Positions 5,421 through 29,134 of a stretch of 30,162 nt of DNA are shown here, piece after piece. The stretch is from Candidatus Pacearchaeota archaeon (GTDB lineage Archaea; Nanobdellota; Nanobdellia; Pacearchaeales; GW2011-AR1). The DNA lies in NCBI GenBank assembly GCA_016866975.1, contig VGKP01000011.1, positions 1-30,162 on the forward strand, read 5' to 3'. How positions within the stretch are numbered: position 1 is the first letter of the stretch; each line of letters opens with the position of its first letter. A program made the position numbers and the translations under genes. The notes beneath the pieces were generated by a model, which was not told the DNA's origin, searched no databases, and saw nothing but the letters and a program-made list of their open reading frames with translations.

Positions 5421-6479
5421 ATGCAGAATATTGAAGATTCTTTAAACTGGCTCAATGGGTTTGCAAAGGAGGTTGCAGTAGCTTCCACTATGCACGAGCC
5501 TGATCAATCTCTACTTGAAGGCATAAGTCGCATTGCACCTATCTTGAAAGATGCAGGGTTTGATTGGCATATTGCTATGACTGAGACCACGCGTACTCAA
5601 GGTCTTAGAAAAGAAGATTTTTACAACCTTCTCAGTAAAAAATTTAATGTCAGGACAGACTCAGGACTAAGAGATCAATTTCCAAATTTTGATACAAAAG
5701 ACAAGATTGAAGCAAATCATTATGAAGTTTTCTTGAGAGCAGCAAGGAGCGGCAAACCATTTATCTTGTATATGGATTCTGACAGAATCACAGTGGGAGC
5801 AAATTACTACCCCAGAGAGTTCTCAGAGTCATTGAATACAGCCTTAAGAATAGCTAAAAATGGCAAGATTGTGGCATTGGCAAGATCGCCTAGCGCCATA
5901 AATACTCATCTTTCATCTTTAGTTTTGACAGAGGGCCTGGTTCACTCATTTTATAATCGTGAATTGCAAGTAGGCTCGGCATTTGTTGACTTGCTGTCTA
6001 CCGGTTATCTGATCCCTTCAGATAGAGTGGAGAGGCTGCTCTCAGATTATAAGGGAGGAGAGTTCTTAGGGGTGCGCTCAAATTATCCTCATTCAAAAGT
6101 AATCTTGGCCCTCATGGCACAAAATGGCATAGGTCTTGAATCAATCCAGACTGATAACATTCTTAGATATGAGGCTCCAGAGCAGATGAGGGGAGCAGGA
6201 AAGATAAATCTGGGCTACCATCAGTGGACTCCAGCACACTATGATGAGGTGACTCTGGCGTCTAGACCTCTGCAAGAAGAAATCATGCAGAATCCGAGAG
6301 AATGGCAAAACAGATTCTCTACAGTAGTACAATATCTAAGTGTTTTGGATAAACTTTGGATTAGGTCTAGGGGCGAGCAATGCCAGGAATTAGATAATTT
6401 GGTTAAAGAGATTAGCTGTTTCAGCGGTTCAGCTGATGAGTATCGCTCTAAAGCTGTAGAGTTATCAAAAAGATACTAA
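5421..6479 (+). CDS. Uncharacterised protein, possible divergent GT-A-fold glycosyltransferase
   Basis: 352-aa ORF with its own TATA-like box (TTTAAAAG, about 5392-5399). Has a DxD-like YMDSDR after a hydrophobic strand. No family recognised with certainty. Confidence 0.6.
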   Translation: MQNIEDSLNWLNGFAKEVAVASTMHEPDQSLLEGISRIAPILKDAGFDWHIAMTETTRTQGLRKEDFYNLLSKKFNVRTDSGLRDQFPNFDTKDKIEANHYEVFLRAARSGKPFILYMDSDRITVGANYYPREFSESLNTALRIAKNGKIVALARSPSAINTHLSSLVLTEGLVHSFYNRELQVGSAFVDLLSTGYLIPSDRVERLLSDYKGGEFLGVRSNYPHSKVILALMAQNGIGLESIQTDNILRYEAPEQMRGAGKINLGYHQWTPAHYDEVTLASRPLQEEIMQNPREWQNRFSTVVQYLSVLDKLWIRSRGEQCQELDNLVKEISCFSGSADEYRSKAVELSKRY

Positions 6480-8458: not shown

Positions 8459-8656
8459 ATGATTAAGAAAAAGGCATTTGAGGTAAAGAAAGGTGATTCT
8501 ATCAAGATAGGTGGAGAAGAGATGATTGTTGAAGAGACGGAGATTTCAGACATTGGCAAGCAAGGAGCAAAGAAGGTGAGAATAGTCGCCAAGAAGAAAA
8601 ATGGAGAGAAGGCGATCCTCATAAGACCAGAGGATTATCCATTAGATATCTCATGA
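8459..8656 (+). CDS. Small eIF5A/EF-P N-terminal (KOW/SH3-like) domain protein, 65 aa
   Basis: KKGD.I.IGG and SDIGKQGAKKVRIVA resemble the aIF5A loop SKPGKHGxAKxR, followed by G.K..+IRP. ATGA overlap with the next GT2. Confidence 0.7.
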   Translation: MIKKKAFEVKKGDSIKIGGEEMIVEETEISDIGKQGAKKVRIVAKKKNGEKAILIRPEDYPLDIS

Positions 8657-10622: not shown

Positions 10623-11399
10623 TCAGAATTTCTTTTCTAAACGAATAAAACCGCCGAACTTGTTGTCTTTGCCGTTGAAGCCTGCCTGCGCGCGGACGCC
10701 GAGCGTTGCGCTCATGCTTTTGCTGAATGCATACGTGAAAGGCAGGATTGCACGTACATGCGCAGTGCCTTCGTCACTGTTGTAGAAATTTTTGCCAGAG
10801 AGATACGTCCATGAGACAGTTGGAGCAAGGGAGAGCTTTTCAGTGCGTTGATAAGGCAAAGTGGCAGAAGCGACAAGCATCGAGCCGTCGCTACCTTGCT
10901 GTCCGAGTAGCTGCACTATGCTTGCTTTTGCTTCGAGCGAAGTTTTCTCGCTCAGTTTCTGCTGAAGCCAGAGACTTGGCTCGATGATAGCGTGGCTCTT
11001 TCCCAACTTGCCTGCGATGCCGTATTCCCACCACGCGCCATGCAGCGATAAGCCTGCTTTCATCGTATCTGTTTTTATGATAGGGGGCGAGCTGTAACTG
11101 ACGCCGAGGTCAAGCTCGTGCATGCCTTCTTTGTTTAAACCAGAATCAAGATTCTGATTGAGCCAAGTATATGCAGAGAATCTGCCGAGCTTACCTGCGT
11201 TGTAGAAAATAGAAAATTCGGGCTGCACAACAGGTCCTTCTTTATCCGTTGGAAAAAATCCGGGGCGTGTCCAGTATACATCTCCTAAAGTAATTGCTAC
11301 GTTTGCGCTCAAAGGAGATTTTTTGGAATCAGCAGCATTCAGGGAAATTGCCTGTACGAAAGCTAATCCCACCAGTTGAAGTTTACTGCAGAGTTGCAT
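10623..11399 (-). CDS. Secreted beta-strand-rich protein resembling bacterial outer-membrane beta-barrels (TorF/Gcw_chp-like putative porin)
   Basis: Signal-peptide-like N-terminus (…QAISLNA|A). YWTRPG…GPVVQP…W…ELDLGVSY parallels the TorF-type pattern. Alternating amphipathic strands and a C-terminal Phe (GFIRLEKKF). AGGAGG at 11412-11417. Confidence 0.6.
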   Translation of the reverse strand: MQLCSKLQLVGLAFVQAISLNAADSKKSPLSANVAITLGDVYWTRPGFFPTDKEGPVVQPEFSIFYNAGKLGRFSAYTWLNQNLDSGLNKEGMHELDLGVSYSSPPIIKTDTMKAGLSLHGAWWEYGIAGKLGKSHAIIEPSLWLQQKLSEKTSLEAKASIVQLLGQQGSDGSMLVASATLPYQRTEKLSLAPTVSWTYLSGKNFYNSDEGTAHVRAILPFTYAFSKSMSATLGVRAQAGFNGKDNKFGGFIRLEKKF

Positions 11400-11959
11400 T
11401 GTAACTGCTTCCCTCCTTTTTCAATAGATTCTCTTGTAACTTGCATTATCAAAGGTTTCAGCGAGTCTGCTATATTCTTATAATCGTCTTTCTGATAAGA
11501 AGTTTTTACTGCTGAGTGAATATTCACTTTCAAACACGCGTTATGATAAGGAAATTTTTGTAGCATCATTGTTACAATTTCAGAGGCGATGTTTTTTTCG
11601 TTGCTTTGAGCTGCAGATATAGCTATAGAATCTGGATTCGCCCTTAATCTATCGTACCTGCCATCTTGCTTGATGTCATCGAAATGGTCTACATACGCAA
11701 TATACCATGTGACATTTTTCGGCAAAACTTGGCGTTCAGACAATTCTAGATTCGTGAAGACTTGCACAGGGGTCTTTCTCTGGGCGCGGTAATGCTCCGA
11801 TTTTTTATTTTCTTCGTTAAAACGAGTTGCTTCAACATCAAAAGTATATAAAAAGATTGGAGTCTGGTACTCTAGTACAAGCTTCCTCTTGGTAGGTCTG
11901 AAAGTGAAGCTTTGCTCTGTTCTTGTCTCCAAATCTTTTGGTTTATTTTGTTCTTTCAT
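11363..11959 (-). CDS. Hypothetical protein, 198 aa
   Basis: Soluble-looking ORF with a TATA-like TATATAG about 22 nt upstream. Overlaps the beta-barrel-like gene by 37 bp. No recognised motif. Confidence 0.55.
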   Translation of the reverse strand: MKEQNKPKDLETRTEQSFTFRPTKRKLVLEYQTPIFLYTFDVEATRFNEENKKSEHYRAQRKTPVQVFTNLELSERQVLPKNVTWYIAYVDHFDDIKQDGRYDRLRANPDSIAISAAQSNEKNIASEIVTMMLQKFPYHNACLKVNIHSAVKTSYQKDDYKNIADSLKPLIMQVTRESIEKGGKQLQCNSAVNFNWWD

Positions 11960-11996
11960 AGTAATGAATCTCTAAGAAGCCTATATAGTTTATTGC

Positions 11997-12012
11997 GGTG
12001 GCAAAAACCACC
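11997..12012. promoter_or_regulatory. Candidate operator GGTGG-N6-CCACC between divergent promoters
   Basis: Inverted repeat between the TATA-like boxes of the 11959 (-) gene and the TrmB (+) gene. Confidence 0.35.
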
Positions 12013-12053
12013 AAAATAGGAAGAGTTAAAAGGTAAGGAAACAGAGAAAGTGA

Positions 12054-21075: not shown

Positions 21076-23001
21076 ATGGGATTTTATGAAAAATGGTTGG
21101 ATAAGGTATGGGGAATATTCTTCTCAAAAGACAGGACTAAGTTCTACCTTCTTTTGATAATCCTTTTGGGATTTGTGTTGCGTCTTGTCGGGGCTATTAA
21201 TCTTGGAGTATCTGCAGACGATATGCATTTTAGTGTACACGCCATAGAATTTCTAAGCTCAGGCAAGCTGGTCGTTTACGACCAGTCAGCATCTCTCTGG
21301 TATGCAGTTACAGATATATTCTATAATATTTTTGGTGCATCTCAATTAGGCTCAAGGATGGCTGCCTTGTTGTTCGGAAGCCTGTCAATAATCGCAATAT
21401 TCTTTCTAACTAGGGAATTCTCAGATACCAAGGCTGCCCTTGTAGCATCTCTATTGCTTGCAATATCACCTTTCCACATAAAATATACTGTGTCCGAGAT
21501 GGATGTCATGGCTATGTTTTTCGTTTTGATGAGCATGACTGTCTTTTTTAAGGCAATAAAGACTGGAAAGGCAATTCACTTTGCATCTAGCGGCATAGTT
21601 TTGGGGCTGGCATTGATGACAAAAGTATATACATTATTATTTGTGCCTGTATTAGTCGTATACGCATTATACCACAACAAGTCTATTAATAAGCAAGCAC
21701 TGACAAAGAGTCATCTCAAGCTCCTTACTATATTCATAATTTGTGCAGGCATATTTGCAATACCAAGCTTAACTCATAATTACCTTCTGTACAAAGAGAA
21801 AGGAATAATGGACCTAATATACACCAATGCGCTTGGCACAAAGGCAGGAGAGGGCAAAGGTATTATGGGTACAATCTTGTCCCCCATAATTGACACTGAA
21901 AAATTATTTTCTAATGGTGCCCCCCATTACTCTTGGGATACAGGCTTTGGTCACGGTGCTGATTGGCGTGGATTCTTTTTAGGCAATTCCATGCATTTGG
22001 GAGGTGATCCAAGACCATCTTCTATTTATGCATTCACATTTATCTGGAACAATGACCCTATAATCCTTCTAGCTGGCATATTGGGTATTATCTTTCTAGT
22101 GTACAGAAAACAGAAGGCGTATCCAATTCTTTCTATTTTAGTATTAGTATTGGTCTTTGCTTATCTGGCATCCCGTATCCTTCTTGCTAAGCATTATATA
22201 TTTCTACTTTTGTTATTCATTCCTCCAGCAGGCATCTTCTTGAGTGAGATGCACGGGTTAATATCAAAAAAGATAAGGGCATTTAGACTACGTTATATTA
22301 TCATGATCTTGTTATTATTTAGTTTATTCTGGTTAGGTTACAAAACACCATATGCCATGAGTCCATTTTACATTCAAAGCGAGGTGGGCCAACTTATGAA
22401 TTATAAGGAGCAATCAATTCCTGACAAAGCTTTTGTTTTTGCAGATTCCAGGATTTATAGAGGCCAAATACATTGGGCATTAAATGGTAAAACATACGCC
22501 GAGGCAGCCTATCTTCCTCAGATTGTAGAAGCCTCTCAGAAATCTGGGAGGGCAGTTCAGACTGAAACTTATTTTATAGAGTGCGCAGTAGATGATTGCG
22601 GATGGGGCACTATTAAGGACCAGCCACAATTTAATCAGAGCATGGAGAATATTGTCGAGATATTCAGCACACAGGGCAAACTACAAAAAGAAATTTTGAG
22701 CACTTCTTTCGAACCTTCTTATTTTCCAGGAATATCTAAACCAAAGACAGTTCATTTTAAGGTCTATAAGACAACCATCCCTATAGACCCTTCCATTTCA
22801 CACTCTTTGGATTCAAGCAAGGTTTGGTTCCTTTACCCAATAGGTTACGATGAAGACATAGCCATACCATTTGACAAATATTATGTAGATAATCCCTTAG
22901 ATAGCCTAATAGATCTTATCGCCCATGCCATACAATACCTAGCCATAATTCTTGCATTCATCACAGCCCTTTTAGCGGTGAAATGGCTCCTTGACGAGTA
23001 A
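21076..23001 (+). CDS. GT-C fold membrane glycosyltransferase (ArnT/PMT-like)
   Basis: SADDMHF acidic pair in loop 1, RMAALLFG, LAISPFHI.Y, many TM segments and a C-terminal domain with ECAVDDCGWG. Confidence 0.8.
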   Translation: MGFYEKWLDKVWGIFFSKDRTKFYLLLIILLGFVLRLVGAINLGVSADDMHFSVHAIEFLSSGKLVVYDQSASLWYAVTDIFYNIFGASQLGSRMAALLFGSLSIIAIFFLTREFSDTKAALVASLLLAISPFHIKYTVSEMDVMAMFFVLMSMTVFFKAIKTGKAIHFASSGIVLGLALMTKVYTLLFVPVLVVYALYHNKSINKQALTKSHLKLLTIFIICAGIFAIPSLTHNYLLYKEKGIMDLIYTNALGTKAGEGKGIMGTILSPIIDTEKLFSNGAPHYSWDTGFGHGADWRGFFLGNSMHLGGDPRPSSIYAFTFIWNNDPIILLAGILGIIFLVYRKQKAYPILSILVLVLVFAYLASRILLAKHYIFLLLLFIPPAGIFLSEMHGLISKKIRAFRLRYIIMILLLFSLFWLGYKTPYAMSPFYIQSEVGQLMNYKEQSIPDKAFVFADSRIYRGQIHWALNGKTYAEAAYLPQIVEASQKSGRAVQTETYFIECAVDDCGWGTIKDQPQFNQSMENIVEIFSTQGKLQKEILSTSFEPSYFPGISKPKTVHFKVYKTTIPIDPSISHSLDSSKVWFLYPIGYDEDIAIPFDKYYVDNPLDSLIDLIAHAIQYLAIILAFITALLAVKWLLDE

Positions 23002-24945: not shown

Positions 24946-25955
24946 GATATAAATATCCCGTCCTTAAATAACCAGAATCCAATTAATATTACTGCTAGTT
25001 GGAAGCACCATAATAGATAGACTACATTTTTTTCAGTAGAAGGAATATTAATGTTCTTCAATATTCTTATTGCAAAATGTTCAAGACCGTATATTTTATC
25101 ATAGGGCTCGTTCAATGTACCATCTTTCTGGGGCTTGCCAAATGAGTATTTTACAAGCTTTCCTCTAGATTTCAATACGGTTTCTATTATATACGGTATA
25201 AAGAAGAATATTGCTATCTTCTCAAAATTCCCCAAAATCGCCATAGTAGCTATCAGGCTGCCTATGGCATAAGTCATCACATCTCCTGGAAATACTTGGG
25301 CAGGGCAGAAATTGAATAGTAAAAATGCAAGAAGGGCAGCCACCATGCAGAAAGCTATCAAAGATAACCATGCAGCATTTGTGAATAAAGCCACAATACC
25401 TAATGCAGACAGGATAAGCACTCCTTGTCCGGCCTCAAGCCCATTATAGCCTGCTAGAAAATTATATGTCGAAGTAGCACCAACTACTCCTATTGGCACT
25501 AATATCAAAGAATACAATACTCCTATATTTACAGCTCCAAGAATAGGGATATTGATATCAGCTCTTCCGGCATTTATAGCAATTAATGGAACAGACACGA
25601 AGAGGAGCACGGCTAGCCTAGATTTCCTTGACAGGCCCCCAGATCTCCATCCAAGAAGGTCATCAATAAATCCTATTCCAGAGGCAAATACGACTACGAG
25701 AAGGAGTGCAAGTATGTCAGCAAGGTTATCTGTAGTAAAAAAGAATGTCTGATAAGCCACAAAAAACATTGCTCCGAATAGAAATCCTAGCATGACCATT
25801 ATTCCACCAGAGCCAGCCACTTTCCCTCTCTTTAGCTTATTCATGTCTTCCCATTCAAGATTTATTGAATGTGCCTTCTGTATCCATATTTTCAAAGAGA
25901 ACAAAGTTACCAGGAAACTTATCAACAAAGGTAATATAAGTATTAGATCTGCCAT
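24942..25955 (-). CDS. aglH: UDP-N-acetylhexosamine:polyprenyl-phosphate HexNAc-1-P transferase (MraY/GPT family, AglH/ALG7-like)
   Basis: GSGGI, GFIDD, NFLAGYNGLEAG, FPGD..TY. TAATG overlap with aglB. Confidence 0.88.
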   Translation of the reverse strand: MADLILILPLLISFLVTLFSLKIWIQKAHSINLEWEDMNKLKRGKVAGSGGIMVMLGFLFGAMFFVAYQTFFFTTDNLADILALLLVVVFASGIGFIDDLLGWRSGGLSRKSRLAVLLFVSVPLIAINAGRADINIPILGAVNIGVLYSLILVPIGVVGATSTYNFLAGYNGLEAGQGVLILSALGIVALFTNAAWLSLIAFCMVAALLAFLLFNFCPAQVFPGDVMTYAIGSLIATMAILGNFEKIAIFFFIPYIIETVLKSRGKLVKYSFGKPQKDGTLNEPYDKIYGLEHFAIRILKNINIPSTEKNVVYLLWCFQLAVILIGFWLFKDGIFIS

Positions 25956-28900
25956 TATCTTGCCAGCCTTAAGTCTTGGAAGTTTTTCTGGAGATACGTA
26001 GAATTGGTTTGTATATCATCAGGATAATTTATCTCCCATATTCTTATAGGTCCTTGCACTCCTTGATAAAATACAATGTCTCCGATATCAGTTCCAACTG
26101 CTTGCGGTCTTATCTGTTCTACAATTGGAGAGTCTTGAGTATGGACAAGCTTGAAATAAAGATTATCCTCTTTGTAAAGATAAAGTCTTGCAAGCTGGGA
26201 CCTTACAGTTTTCGAGCTTAAGTATAATAACGCGCCATCTTTCTCAAGACCTATTCTTTCCCCATTAGGTTGTAAATTGTTCATGAAAAACACTCCAGCA
26301 TCTATTCCAGAGCCAAAGTCATAGAATGTGTCATTATAGAAAGCATATCTTAATGGAAAAGATTCTTCTTTCTGTTGATCTTTTTGCCTATATACATATA
26401 TTCCTTGAGCAGGTCCTCTCAGATTGCCTTGCGGGTCCATCTCTATGCTTATTCCAATTATACCTGATCTGTCTGCAAGGATAGAAACAGTACTGGTCCC
26501 ATTAGTCTGGTTCTGAGTATAAAGTATGTCTCCGTCTAATGGTATTATGGATTGATATTTTTGCGCCCCAGGATAATAAAATACCTTGGTACCATTCTTT
26601 ACTTCTTTAAAATCTACAGGAGAACGAGTCATTGTTTGTATCCAGCTTCTTCTATCTCCACTAAGATCAGAACCTATGCTGGAGAAAGCAGTATACTTTC
26701 CAATGTCCGAGGAATCTATTAGGAAGTGGGTCGTCTTATGAGTATAGAGATAGCTCAATACTTCCATTTGTTCTTCTGGGGGAGCTGTCAATGCATATCT
26801 CCCCATAAGAAAGTTCCAGTAAGGTATCGCATTTCCTCCATCCAATACGGTAGCTCTGTCTCCTATGGATTGTAGCCAGTATCCATAATCCCACCAATGC
26901 CCGAATACAGCATTTTGAGGTGTATTGTCTCTCACCCACCCCATGGCTTTCTGCCATTGGAAAGTATACGAGTAAGGTATACTTCCCTGGGCTCCCCCTC
27001 TGCTTGCTTGATAGAAATTATAGGCTGCAAAAAGAGAAGACACAAGGATCATAATCATGATGATTATCGCTATTATTTTCCATCCTTTTTCCTTTACTCT
27101 GTAAGCCTTTATGCTAGTTATTACAAGATATGCAACTATTATTGCGGCAGGGATAGCCAGGACCATAATAAGTCTCACTGCTCCTCTAGCTGATATGATG
27201 CTAAGGAAGAAGAATGCAAATAACATCACTGTCCCAGGATTAAGTGTCTTAAATCTTTCTTCCTTTGATATACCTATCAAAGAAAAGGCACCAAAGCAGG
27301 CAATAAGCATTCCTGATAATATCATGAAGAAAGTAGAATCTTTGAAATAAAGTATCCAAATCATGTAAAATAAGAATGATGCTCCTGCTATTTGATAATA
27401 TAGCTTTGTTTTGGCAGTTTTTGCCATCCCTGGCCAGCCTAATACAAATACAAGTAGAAGAAATCCTAGACCATATAACAACAAACTCATTGAACTTGTT
27501 CCATTAAGCACACTGTCTCCCCTATACCTACTGAATATGAGTGCAAATAGGAATCCAAGGTAACCTCCAGTCATCACTAGTCTTTCCTTGATTGAGAAAG
27601 ATTTGACCATTGAGAAAAACAATAGTACTGATCCAAAAAAGAATAGCCAGAAGAACAAAGGTATTTGAGACCAGGAACTTGCTGTGCTTTGCGAGACTTT
27701 GAACCAATTAAATGTTAAGAATGTGAACAAACTGTAGAATGAGGGTCCAAAATTGCCTGCCCATTCATCAAAGAACGGTTGCCTGTTTTCAGCAACAGTT
27801 ACTCCAAGTCTGTCAGTAGTTGGTGTTACAAGTTGATTCACTACATTTTGTACTTTTCCTTGTATGAAATTAGGACCAAGAGCAAGAGATCCTGCAAGAA
27901 TACACACAAGAGCAATACCTATTGCTATGAGTTGATTTGGAAGATGCGACAGTTTCCCTCTCTCAATAAATTTCTTCAAGGGGGTCTCCCTTAACGCAAA
28001 ATCCACTACCATTACTACTAGTATAAAAGTGGCTATCCCAGTTGTTGTAGAAGTAAGTAAGCCCATGAAAGTATAACGTTTTGTGAAAGCTGCAGTAATG
28101 CCCATCGATCCCAGAAGCCATAGTCCATAGATGAATACCGAGTGTCTATGGGTTTGTCCTACAAGGAATAGAACTGTTGCAGCAAGGCCGATAGTAATAT
28201 AAATATAGATGTATCCTCCCCATACGAGGGCCATTGCAGCTGTAGTTATGGCAGACAGTATAGCATATAAATATCTGGGCAGATTTTCCTTAGCCTTCCA
28301 AGCAAGAAGGAAGAAATAGAATGCTAAGAAAAGGAATGGTAATGCACTCACTTCTTTTTCAGGTATTCCCGCCACTGTTCTAGGTAAGAGTACAGGTATA
28401 ACAGTCAGGATAAATGATGCAAATAAAGCGATTGCACTTGACGTGTTCTCACCAAGCTCATCTCTAAACATTTCTCTTACAAGGAAAAAGAAAGTTATTA
28501 TCCCGAGAGCAAACATAAATACAGGATATATTATCGCTGAATATTCAACAGATGTGCTTCCAAATGCACTAGCTAGTTTATGGAACCAAGCCATAAGAAT
28601 AGGGTGAAGGATTAATTCTTCTGAAGTATTGAACCCTATAGGAACATATCTCATAGGGTCAATCTCAAATAAGGATCCATTTGCCACTATATCCTTCATC
28701 CATCTTAAGAATAAGAATGGGTCTAGGTCTGGACCAAGGGTCCAAGTGTCTCTCGAGATGTCCCACAGTCCAGGTTTTCCAGTCCCAGGGTTGATGCTCA
28801 TTGGCAGGGTCCTTATCTTTATGGAAATCCACACAATCCATGCAAATAATGGATAAAACGCATACTTGTCTTTCCTATAATAGACGCATGCCGCAGATAA

Positions 28901-29134
28901 TGAAGCAAGTAGTGCAAGAAGAAACCAATCTCCTGGGTTCCATGCATAAGCTATAGATGCAAAATAAGCTATTGGGGCAAAGCCAATGTTTGGGTTAAAC
29001 AGGCCGCTTTTTACCCAAATACTAATGGATAGACTAATGGCAGCTATTGTCAGGAATGATGAGAACAATATATCTCTTTTAAGAAAATCTATAACTAGTT
29101 TCTTGCGCTCATGGATTAGTTTGTCTTCTTCCAT
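25955..29134 (-). CDS. aglB: Oligosaccharyltransferase STT3/AglB
   Basis: DLDPFLFLR, PEKE, TVAE (TIXE-like), WWDYG, DGG and DSSDIGK (DK-type motif), after a large TM region. Confidence 0.95.
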   Translation of the reverse strand: MEEDKLIHERKKLVIDFLKRDILFSSFLTIAAISLSISIWVKSGLFNPNIGFAPIAYFASIAYAWNPGDWFLLALLASLSAACVYYRKDKYAFYPLFAWIVWISIKIRTLPMSINPGTGKPGLWDISRDTWTLGPDLDPFLFLRWMKDIVANGSLFEIDPMRYVPIGFNTSEELILHPILMAWFHKLASAFGSTSVEYSAIIYPVFMFALGIITFFFLVREMFRDELGENTSSAIALFASFILTVIPVLLPRTVAGIPEKEVSALPFLFLAFYFFLLAWKAKENLPRYLYAILSAITTAAMALVWGGYIYIYITIGLAATVLFLVGQTHRHSVFIYGLWLLGSMGITAAFTKRYTFMGLLTSTTTGIATFILVVMVVDFALRETPLKKFIERGKLSHLPNQLIAIGIALVCILAGSLALGPNFIQGKVQNVVNQLVTPTTDRLGVTVAENRQPFFDEWAGNFGPSFYSLFTFLTFNWFKVSQSTASSWSQIPLFFWLFFFGSVLLFFSMVKSFSIKERLVMTGGYLGFLFALIFSRYRGDSVLNGTSSMSLLLYGLGFLLLVFVLGWPGMAKTAKTKLYYQIAGASFLFYMIWILYFKDSTFFMILSGMLIACFGAFSLIGISKEERFKTLNPGTVMLFAFFFLSIISARGAVRLIMVLAIPAAIIVAYLVITSIKAYRVKEKGWKIIAIIIMIMILVSSLFAAYNFYQASRGGAQGSIPYSYTFQWQKAMGWVRDNTPQNAVFGHWWDYGYWLQSIGDRATVLDGGNAIPYWNFLMGRYALTAPPEEQMEVLSYLYTHKTTHFLIDSSDIGKYTAFSSIGSDLSGDRRSWIQTMTRSPVDFKEVKNGTKVFYYPGAQKYQSIIPLDGDILYTQNQTNGTSTVSILADRSGIIGISIEMDPQGNLRGPAQGIYVYRQKDQQKEESFPLRYAFYNDTFYDFGSGIDAGVFFMNNLQPNGERIGLEKDGALLYLSSKTVRSQLARLYLYKEDNLYFKLVHTQDSPIVEQIRPQAVGTDIGDIVFYQGVQGPIRIWEINYPDDIQTNSTYLQKNFQDLRLAR

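Follow-up and report, generated by a model that had tools for sequence, protein, structure and literature searches.

Outer-membrane-type β-barrels are taken as a hallmark of diderm bacteria and of the organelles descended from them, Omp85 proteins being considered necessary for their assembly. Gcw_chp (PF09694) is one family of putative porins, and no relevant paper on TorF or Gcw_chp was found in the literature. Full-text searches likewise gave no account, for Pacearchaeota, Woesearchaeota or Nanoarchaeota, of porins or of barrels of the outer-membrane type; the nearest statement was a single sentence from 2025 on a possible distant relative of PopA in Altiarchaeales (PMC12228718). We analyzed a stretch of 30,162 nucleotides, termed the window, from Candidatus Pacearchaeota archaeon (contig VGKP01000011.1 of assembly GCA_016866975.1), in which a preliminary description had placed a gene for a TorF-like outer-membrane barrel on an archaeal chromosome. 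The peptides quoted in that description, including the C-terminal FGGFIRLEKKF, were all present in a 258-amino-acid (aa) open reading frame (ORF) on the minus strand (Table 1). Our reading, to which we assign a probability of roughly 0.5, is that this native archaeal gene encodes a predicted exported barrel that would serve, independently of the β-barrel assembly machinery (BAM), as a channel outside the cytoplasmic membrane and would be switched by a TrmB-family regulator.

Structure prediction was performed at two alignment depths. AlphaFold2 run with 5 sequences gave a predicted local distance difference test score (pLDDT) of 80.4, while 26 sequences raised this score to 88.6 (86.8 to 88.6 over the five models) with a predicted template modeling score (pTM) of 0.81; both runs produced an identical set of 12 strands arranged as a barrel. 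An independent model from the ESM Atlas (pTM 0.76) was also a barrel, the top structural row in the Atlas being a Gcw_chp cluster (template modeling score, 0.78) and the nearest clusters consisting of hypothetical proteins from bacteria of the Planctomycetes-Verrucomicrobia-Chlamydiae (PVC) group and of Gcw_chp clusters. Foldseek matches were to OmpG, FapF, NanC and KdgM, with E values of 1e-8 to 1e-5. An exhaustive structural comparison yielded KdgM (4pr7; Z 18.0, root mean square deviation [rmsd] 2.2, 170 of 171 residues aligned), NanC (2wjr; Z 17.4), the COG4313 channel (4rl8; Z 17.4), VhGalP (Z 17.1), PcoB (Z 16.8), FapF (Z 16.8) and Tsx (Z 16.6), and the first 47 rows of this comparison were all membrane barrels. 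With the two AlphaFold2 runs and the Atlas model in agreement, the protein is confidently predicted to fold as a 12-stranded outer-membrane-type barrel, as had been proposed, and not as a non-barrel fold.

The alternation of amphipathic strands noted in the preliminary description was beyond chance. For the 12 predicted strands taken together, the mean Kyte-Doolittle value was +1.71 on one face, where 2 of 67 residues are charged, and −1.05 on the opposite face, where 16 of 71 are; this difference (z = 4.9) was reached by none of 2000 shuffles of the mature barrel sequence. The hydrophobic faces had aliphatic centers with Y, W or F at the ends, the pattern of an aromatic girdle, while the lumen face of the strands contained 10 basic and 6 acidic residues, and E95 and D97 were invariant throughout the family. 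At the N terminus, Lys6 is followed by hydrophobic residues (positions 7 to 20) and then by small residues; both AlphaFold2 models contained a low-confidence helix with a disordered linker after it (residues 2 to 18 and 19 to 25 in the 26-sequence model), and the region was hydrophobic yet weakly conserved among homologues. This segment resembles a signal peptide, and the protein is probably exported. At the other end of the protein there is a terminal Phe, with Leu at −5, Ile at −7 and Lys at −3. Among 31 archaeal family members the last residue was aromatic in 25 (Phe in 23, Trp in 2), position −5 was hydrophobic in 26, position −7 was I, L or V in 22 and position −3 was K in 8 and Y in 8. 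Judged by these residues, the C terminus of the family resembles the classical outer-membrane C-terminal signal, from which the subfamily of the window protein deviates at −3.

The window constitutes the entire contig C11 of a 0.806-Mb genome (31 contigs, 89.4% complete, 0.52% contaminated) bearing an archaeal small-subunit rRNA (1309 bits). Apart from the barrel locus, the contig is occupied by a cell-surface glycosylation island, which includes two STT3/AglB-like genes, Alg13/14-like genes, glycosyltransferases of the GT2 and GT4 types, a flippase, RmlABCD, QueC and TrmB. Gene order was identical in a separately assembled 16.7-kb contig from the Joint Genome Institute, and contigs from three more lake-water runs spanned both junctions of the gene without any difference, joint or loose end; no break or chimera was detected around the gene. 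Orthologues of 58 to 69% identity were present in five other assemblies, one of which is labeled Nanoarchaeota archaeon by NCBI, and the neighbors kept by the orthologous loci were TrmB, a nucleoside deoxyribosyltransferase, GT2, a 65-aa IF5A-like ORF and QueC. A metagenome scan with the profile of the window subfamily added one partial orthologue, whose synteny was as in locus L002. Gene context, synteny and the independent assemblies confirmed the archaeal chromosome, and the barrel gene is native to a Pacearchaeota-type DPANN archaeon.

Existing family models did not recognize the protein, which had no Pfam match at E ≤ 0.1 and no NCBIfam match at E ≤ 1; PF09694 was matched at E ≤ 1 by none of the 26 members of the archaeal-family alignment. 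A HMMER scan of 1.84 billion representative proteins returned two clusters only, its own and one at 43% identity, and no bacterial protein, while PDB sequences, searched by profile, yielded no match with E below 0.4 and only OmpG at E 0.43. The archaeal profile picked up a Planctomycetota hypothetical protein and, with it, a family of nine relatives, mostly from metagenome-assembled genomes (MAGs) of Planctomycetota and including one on a 6.6-Mb contig. This family, in which 0 of 9 alignment rows had a Pfam match, aligned with the 26-sequence archaeal family over the full length (hhalign 98.65%, E 4.9e-16, 209 columns), and a profile built from DPANN sequences detected relatives in 9 of 301 Planctomycetota genomes. 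The PF09694 cutoff of 24 bits was passed by one DPANN family member, L041 (34.2 bits; E 1.8e-36 against the 26-sequence archaeal profile), and by the Planctomycetota sequences L064 (29.6 bits) and L071 (24.7 bits). When the profile of the window subfamily was compared with a Gcw_chp-type set that contains three sequences passing PF09694, the two aligned over 177 columns (hhalign 94%, E 1.5e-7), with the N-terminal motif (Y-x-x-R-G ... P-V-x-Q-P), the E-x-D strand, later strands and the terminal Phe in register. Remote homology of this kind supports placing the protein as a divergent archaeal branch of the Gcw_chp/TorF superfamily. The label TorF-like (Gcw_chp bears the name 'TorF family putative porin' in NCBIfam, as TIGR02001) can be retained for this remote relationship, with its intermediates that pass PF09694, but not for membership as such, as the window protein fails both the PF09694 and the NCBIfam models. 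Lipobox-like signals (…TGC, …GGC) were seen in some archaeal members (L019:1477-2472, minus strand; L026:592-1512, plus strand), which may be lipid-anchored barrels; the Planctomycetota relatives were also lipobox-like (…ATGC). A viral vector for the gene was considered and rejected, no relative being found in IMG/VR viral contigs or GenBank phages.

A 9-sequence profile detected the family in 19 of 401 genomes of the order, which all belong to one GTDB family and in some cases have two or three copies; with a 26-sequence profile, 19 of 401 genomes sampled phylum-wide were positive (18 of 400 at high quality), from at least 11 families of one class. These prevalence figures are lower bounds, as the first-look filter loses true matches (G772 was matched in a 4-genome search and not in a phylum sample). 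The distribution was patchy, amounting to approximately 5% of the class genomes sampled and 5 of 11 other genomes sampled from the same genus. Members occurred singly among housekeeping genes (EF-1alpha, S28e, aminoacyl-tRNA synthetases, enolase and UvrC), some of them deep inside long contigs from genomes that are nearly complete. The phylogenetic tree, of 45 rows, contained a branch (97% support) that split 28 archaeal rows from 14 bacterial and 3 archaeal rows, and the window clade of five, with 100% support and a long branch (1.39), was nested within the 28; the tree is unrooted with Planctomycetota as the sole bacteria sampled, so that donor and direction of transfer are not readable from it, and its topology would fit the archaeal rows having arisen once. 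Comparison of orthologues gave a rate of nonsynonymous substitution (dN) of approximately 0.3 and ratios to the synonymous rate (dN/dS) of 0.07 to 0.32 wherever dS was estimable; the gene is under purifying selection. The archaeal nesting and these ratios led us to reject a recent bacterial transfer and contamination, possibilities raised in the preliminary description, and homologues were not confined to bacteria with near-identical DNA.

Base composition was less clear-cut. The gene has a GC content of 48.4% and a third-position GC content (GC3) of 0.50, compared to 38.8% and a mean of 0.355 for the genome, values near the 99th percentile of ORFs, and its orthologues are not GC3-rich. Expression-linked codon bias or replacement of the allele from a GC-richer relative are both possible, and GC content was set aside as an ambiguous sign of transfer. 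Other high-GC3 ORFs in the genome include aSUI1, ribosomal proteins and two aminoacyl-tRNA synthetases; trmB (GC3 0.435) and the barrel gene are both GC-richer than their neighbors (GC3 0.27 to 0.38). Of the 13 sequencing runs listed as containing the stretch, none was an RNA run, and the compared runs were contigs, the depth of which is uninformative on expression.

The genome was also searched for the machinery that inserts such barrels, using models that detected the expected control bacteria. TamB, OmpH/Skp and LptD had no match at E ≤ 1 in this genome, which is 89% complete. PF01103 had no match in five barrel-bearing relatives that are 91 to 100% complete; with the result for the window genome given below, no Omp85/BamA was found in any of the six. 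A screen of the window genome for exported, strongly amphipathic beta proteins did reveal one more barrel, a 273-aa protein (C2:26073-26894 = L046:13074-13895, plus strand) matching PF13557 (Phenol_MetA_deg, the COG4313 channel family) with 44 bits against a cutoff of 22. It has no sequence relation to the window barrel family, and PF13557 was present in 4 of 381 genomes of the order. A TrmB paralogue (L046:12225-12986, minus strand), 28% identical over its full length to the TrmB of the window and likewise GC-rich (GC3 0.49), is divergent from this second barrel. The highest beta-amphipathicity in the screen belonged to another 273-aa protein (L046:2980-3801, plus strand = C2:15979-16800) with a signal-like N terminus and the ending ...AARY; it had no Pfam match, the central part appears helical on visual inspection and the protein is perhaps not a barrel. 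In a relative, G302, two family members and a PF13557 match lie within approximately 12 kb (C4:74093-86231; L017, L030, L050), forming a small barrel cluster.

In the mechanism that we propose, the barrel would be exported through Sec by its N-terminal signal peptide, with loss of the latter, and the mature protein would fold as a monomeric 12-stranded transmembrane barrel in a lipid layer, inserting without BAM. This lipid layer is placed outside the cytoplasmic membrane because an open barrel in the cell's own energized membrane would be harmful. A hydrophobic belt would face the lipid and a polar, net-basic lumen would form the interior; owing to the predominance of basic residues there and to the invariant E95 and D97, the barrel is read as a water-filled channel for passive movement of solutes, possibly with a preference for anions. 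Its function would be an accessory one, presumably switched by the divergent TrmB-family regulator. As to whose lipid layer this is, we lean, while rating it somewhat unlikely as a specific claim, towards the membrane of a partner or host at the site of cell contact and not an outer membrane of the archaeon's own, on the grounds of the family's patchy distribution, variable copy number, fast evolution and possible dedicated regulator, and of the finding of only two barrel genes in the genome. The more general proposition, that DPANN archaea of the Pacearchaeota and Woesearchaeota types make working porins of the bacterial type, independently of Omp85, in a second lipid layer belonging either to themselves or to a partner, is put forward tentatively, as a possibility we hold at rather less than even odds.

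Several points weigh against this mechanism. To our knowledge, all cultured DPANN archaea have one membrane and a surface layer (S-layer), and we know of no route that places a monomeric 12-strand barrel in a foreign membrane from outside. Lys at −3 is invariant in the subfamily of the window protein, at a position that is hydrophobic in the classical signal. Approximately nine TrmB paralogues are present in the genome and two of these are beside barrels; as the paralogues are so numerous, adjacency is weak evidence for regulation. That Omp85 (PF01103) and its POTRA domain (PF07244) had no match at E ≤ 1 in the genome does not prove them absent, the genome being 89% complete. Outer-membrane proteins left to fold by themselves into native-like bilayers, without BAM, do so slowly, the process being kinetically unfavorable (Horne et al. 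2020, PMC7383365).

An alternative is that the archaeon is itself diderm and that the barrel is a porin of its own unrecognized outer membrane, reached by a non-Omp85 pathway. The diversification of the family within the class, the apparent retention of the classical C-terminal signal across it, the two different barrel families in the genome and the location of the gene in a cell-envelope glycosylation island are all consistent with this, as is the report of inner and outer membranes from cryo-electron tomography of cells of another DPANN lineage, the archaeal Richmond Mine acidophilic nanoorganisms (ARMAN) (Klingl 2014, PMC4243693). A basic envelope plan should, however, be conserved, whereas the family occurs in a small minority of genomes of the class and fewer than half of those sampled from the genus, though other barrel families could substitute for it. 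Diderm bacteria have dozens of barrel genes and only two were found here, and Omp85, TamB, LptD and Skp were not detected; we consider a diderm archaeon improbable.

A second alternative is that the protein is exported but forms no channel across a bilayer, acting instead as a barrel held in the S-layer, in vesicles or in nanotubes, or as one that carries lipid or some other hydrophobic cargo. Lipid scavenging is common among DPANN archaea; no insertase was found in the genome; and similarity of fold by itself shows no function. Against this, the outer face is hydrophobic, has aromatic residues at its ends and is nearly uncharged and the lumen is polar and charged, the reverse of a soluble barrel, and the high-scoring structural matches were all to integral membrane barrels; this explanation, too, is improbable. 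Finally, an origin of the gene in bacterial contamination, in a chimeric assembly or in a transfer too recent to be functional yet, for which the deviating GC content and the bacterial relatives of the family might be cited, is largely refuted and very improbable, given that independent assemblies bridge both junctions and archaeal synteny is kept in five other assemblies, that no bacterial protein was among the 2 matches from 1.84 billion representatives, that the gene is nested in an archaeal clade and is itself under purifying selection and that the orthologues are not GC3-rich while the high-GC3 set includes translation genes, with expression-linked codon bias as another reading of the composition.

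The features surrounding the barrel gene are listed in Table 1. The Shine-Dalgarno sequence of the preliminary description was located as AGGAGGG. The ORF preceding the barrel matched no Pfam or NCBIfam family, and its Atlas model (pLDDT 0.53) had no usable feature match. ORFs in the same position in orthologous loci showed no significant similarity to it or to one another; in every lineage having an ORF between trmB and the barrel, this ORF overlaps the barrel start by 37 or 4 nucleotides (nt), and it is missing in L004. This lineage-variable slot lies at L002:2-631 and L001:625-1405 in two of the other loci. The divergent intergenic region is a putative promoter region. A repeat finder detected no inverted repeats of ≥8 nt in either TrmB-barrel intergenic region, and the palindromes of 5 to 6 nt seen by eye are not claimed as an operator. 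TrmB adjoins the barrel in the orthologous loci, and in two distant loci, too, a family member has a divergent TrmB gene beside it. Among 79 ORFs around 27 distant loci, the genes were of the housekeeping type except for TrmB in 3, making TrmB the only recurrent Pfam family; a conserved partner or insertase beside the barrels was sought among these neighbors and dropped. The pairing of TrmB and barrel is only suggestive of a regulatory unit.

Table 1. Features of the barrel locus, in window coordinates
Feature	Coordinates	Strand	Basis or remark
Porin-like barrel coding sequence, 258 aa, ATG start	10623..11399	-	ORF list; AlphaFold2 model; profile links to Gcw_chp-type sequences
Signal-peptide-like N terminus, approximately residues 1-24	11328..11399	-	Lys6, hydrophobic 7-20, small residues; low-pLDDT helix 2-18
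Shine-Dalgarno-like AGGAGGG, 11 nt 5' of the ATG, within the 3' end of the upstream ORF	11411..11417	-	Read from sequence
Upstream ORF, 198 aa, no signal peptide, overlapping the barrel start by 37 nt	11363..11959	-	ORF list
Divergent intergenic region between barrel operon and trmB	11960..12053		Read from sequence
Palindromic TATA-like CTATATAG	11981-11988		Read by eye
GGTGG-N6-CCACC	11997-12012		Read by eye; 5-nt arms may be due to chance
TrmB-family transcription regulator, 247 aa	12054..12797	+	PF01978, E 1.3e-14; divergent from barrel operon

Further observations were made on the remainder of the contig and on the orthologous loci. The two STT3-like candidates (25955-29134, minus strand, and 21076-23001, plus strand) encode proteins of 1059 aa and of 641 aa, the latter with PMT_2 and a weak STT3 match; with a further PMT_2 protein and many glycosyltransferases, the island is large for a 0.8-Mb genome. 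The 65-aa ORF (8459-8656, plus strand) resembles the IF5A N-domain only, and ORFs in the same position in the orthologous loci had a weak PF21485 match. In the window 26 nt separate the barrel gene from the deoxyribosyltransferase gene. In orthologous loci toxin-antitoxin or nuclease genes lie between the two (HicAB in one, NYN and PIN in another), at 5826-6271 of a 7,986-bp contig of sample ERZ1292636, L001:2204-2649 and L002:1505-3227.

The locus adds homology to Gcw_chp and Planctomycetota proteins, prevalence figures, a tree, a double TrmB-barrel arrangement and a variable slot upstream of the barrel. If the general proposition on DPANN porins is correct, these would be the first archaeal porins and would point to a new way of assembling a β-barrel or of tapping a host; native archaeal barrels without known machinery challenge either the single-membrane picture or the requirement for BAM. 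They would also give work on solute exchange between ultra-small symbiotic archaea and their partners a concrete molecule to start from. Whether DPANN archaea have bacterial hosts is debated (Castelle et al. 2021, PMC8204110), and, in combination with that question, the Planctomycetota homology offers a testable lead on the identity of the partner. The protein is small and predicted to be monomeric and is, hence, amenable to expression, refolding and direct measurement.

The protein was compared with several known systems. BAM-dependent outer-membrane barrels have a terminal aromatic residue and hydrophobic residues at −3, −5 and −7, where the window protein has Phe at the end, Lys at −3, Leu at −5 and Ile at −7, and they require Omp85/BamA in the same genome, which was not found here. 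KdgM, NanC and VhGalP (4pr7, 2wjr and 8xua) and the COG4313 channel (4rl8) are likewise monomeric 12-strand barrels and superimpose with rmsd values of 2.2 to 3.1 over 170 to 212 residues, at sequence identities of only 8 to 11%; the window protein matches none of their Pfam families. The balance of basic and acidic residues in its lumen may loosely recall these acidic-sugar channels, but the resemblance is at the level of fold only and, therefore, no substrate can be inferred. The Planctomycetota outer-membrane lipoprotein family (e.g., MAG protein AB8H80_01660) matches the DPANN family by profile over the full length but differs from the window protein in its lipobox-type signal, longer loops and diderm hosts. 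Relative to Gcw_chp, the window protein is set apart by its lack of a PF09694 or NCBIfam match, its long branch within the archaeal clade and a host without detected BAM, while the two have in common a similar size (approximately 230 to 260 aa), an N terminus like a signal peptide and an all-beta prediction of 12 strands.

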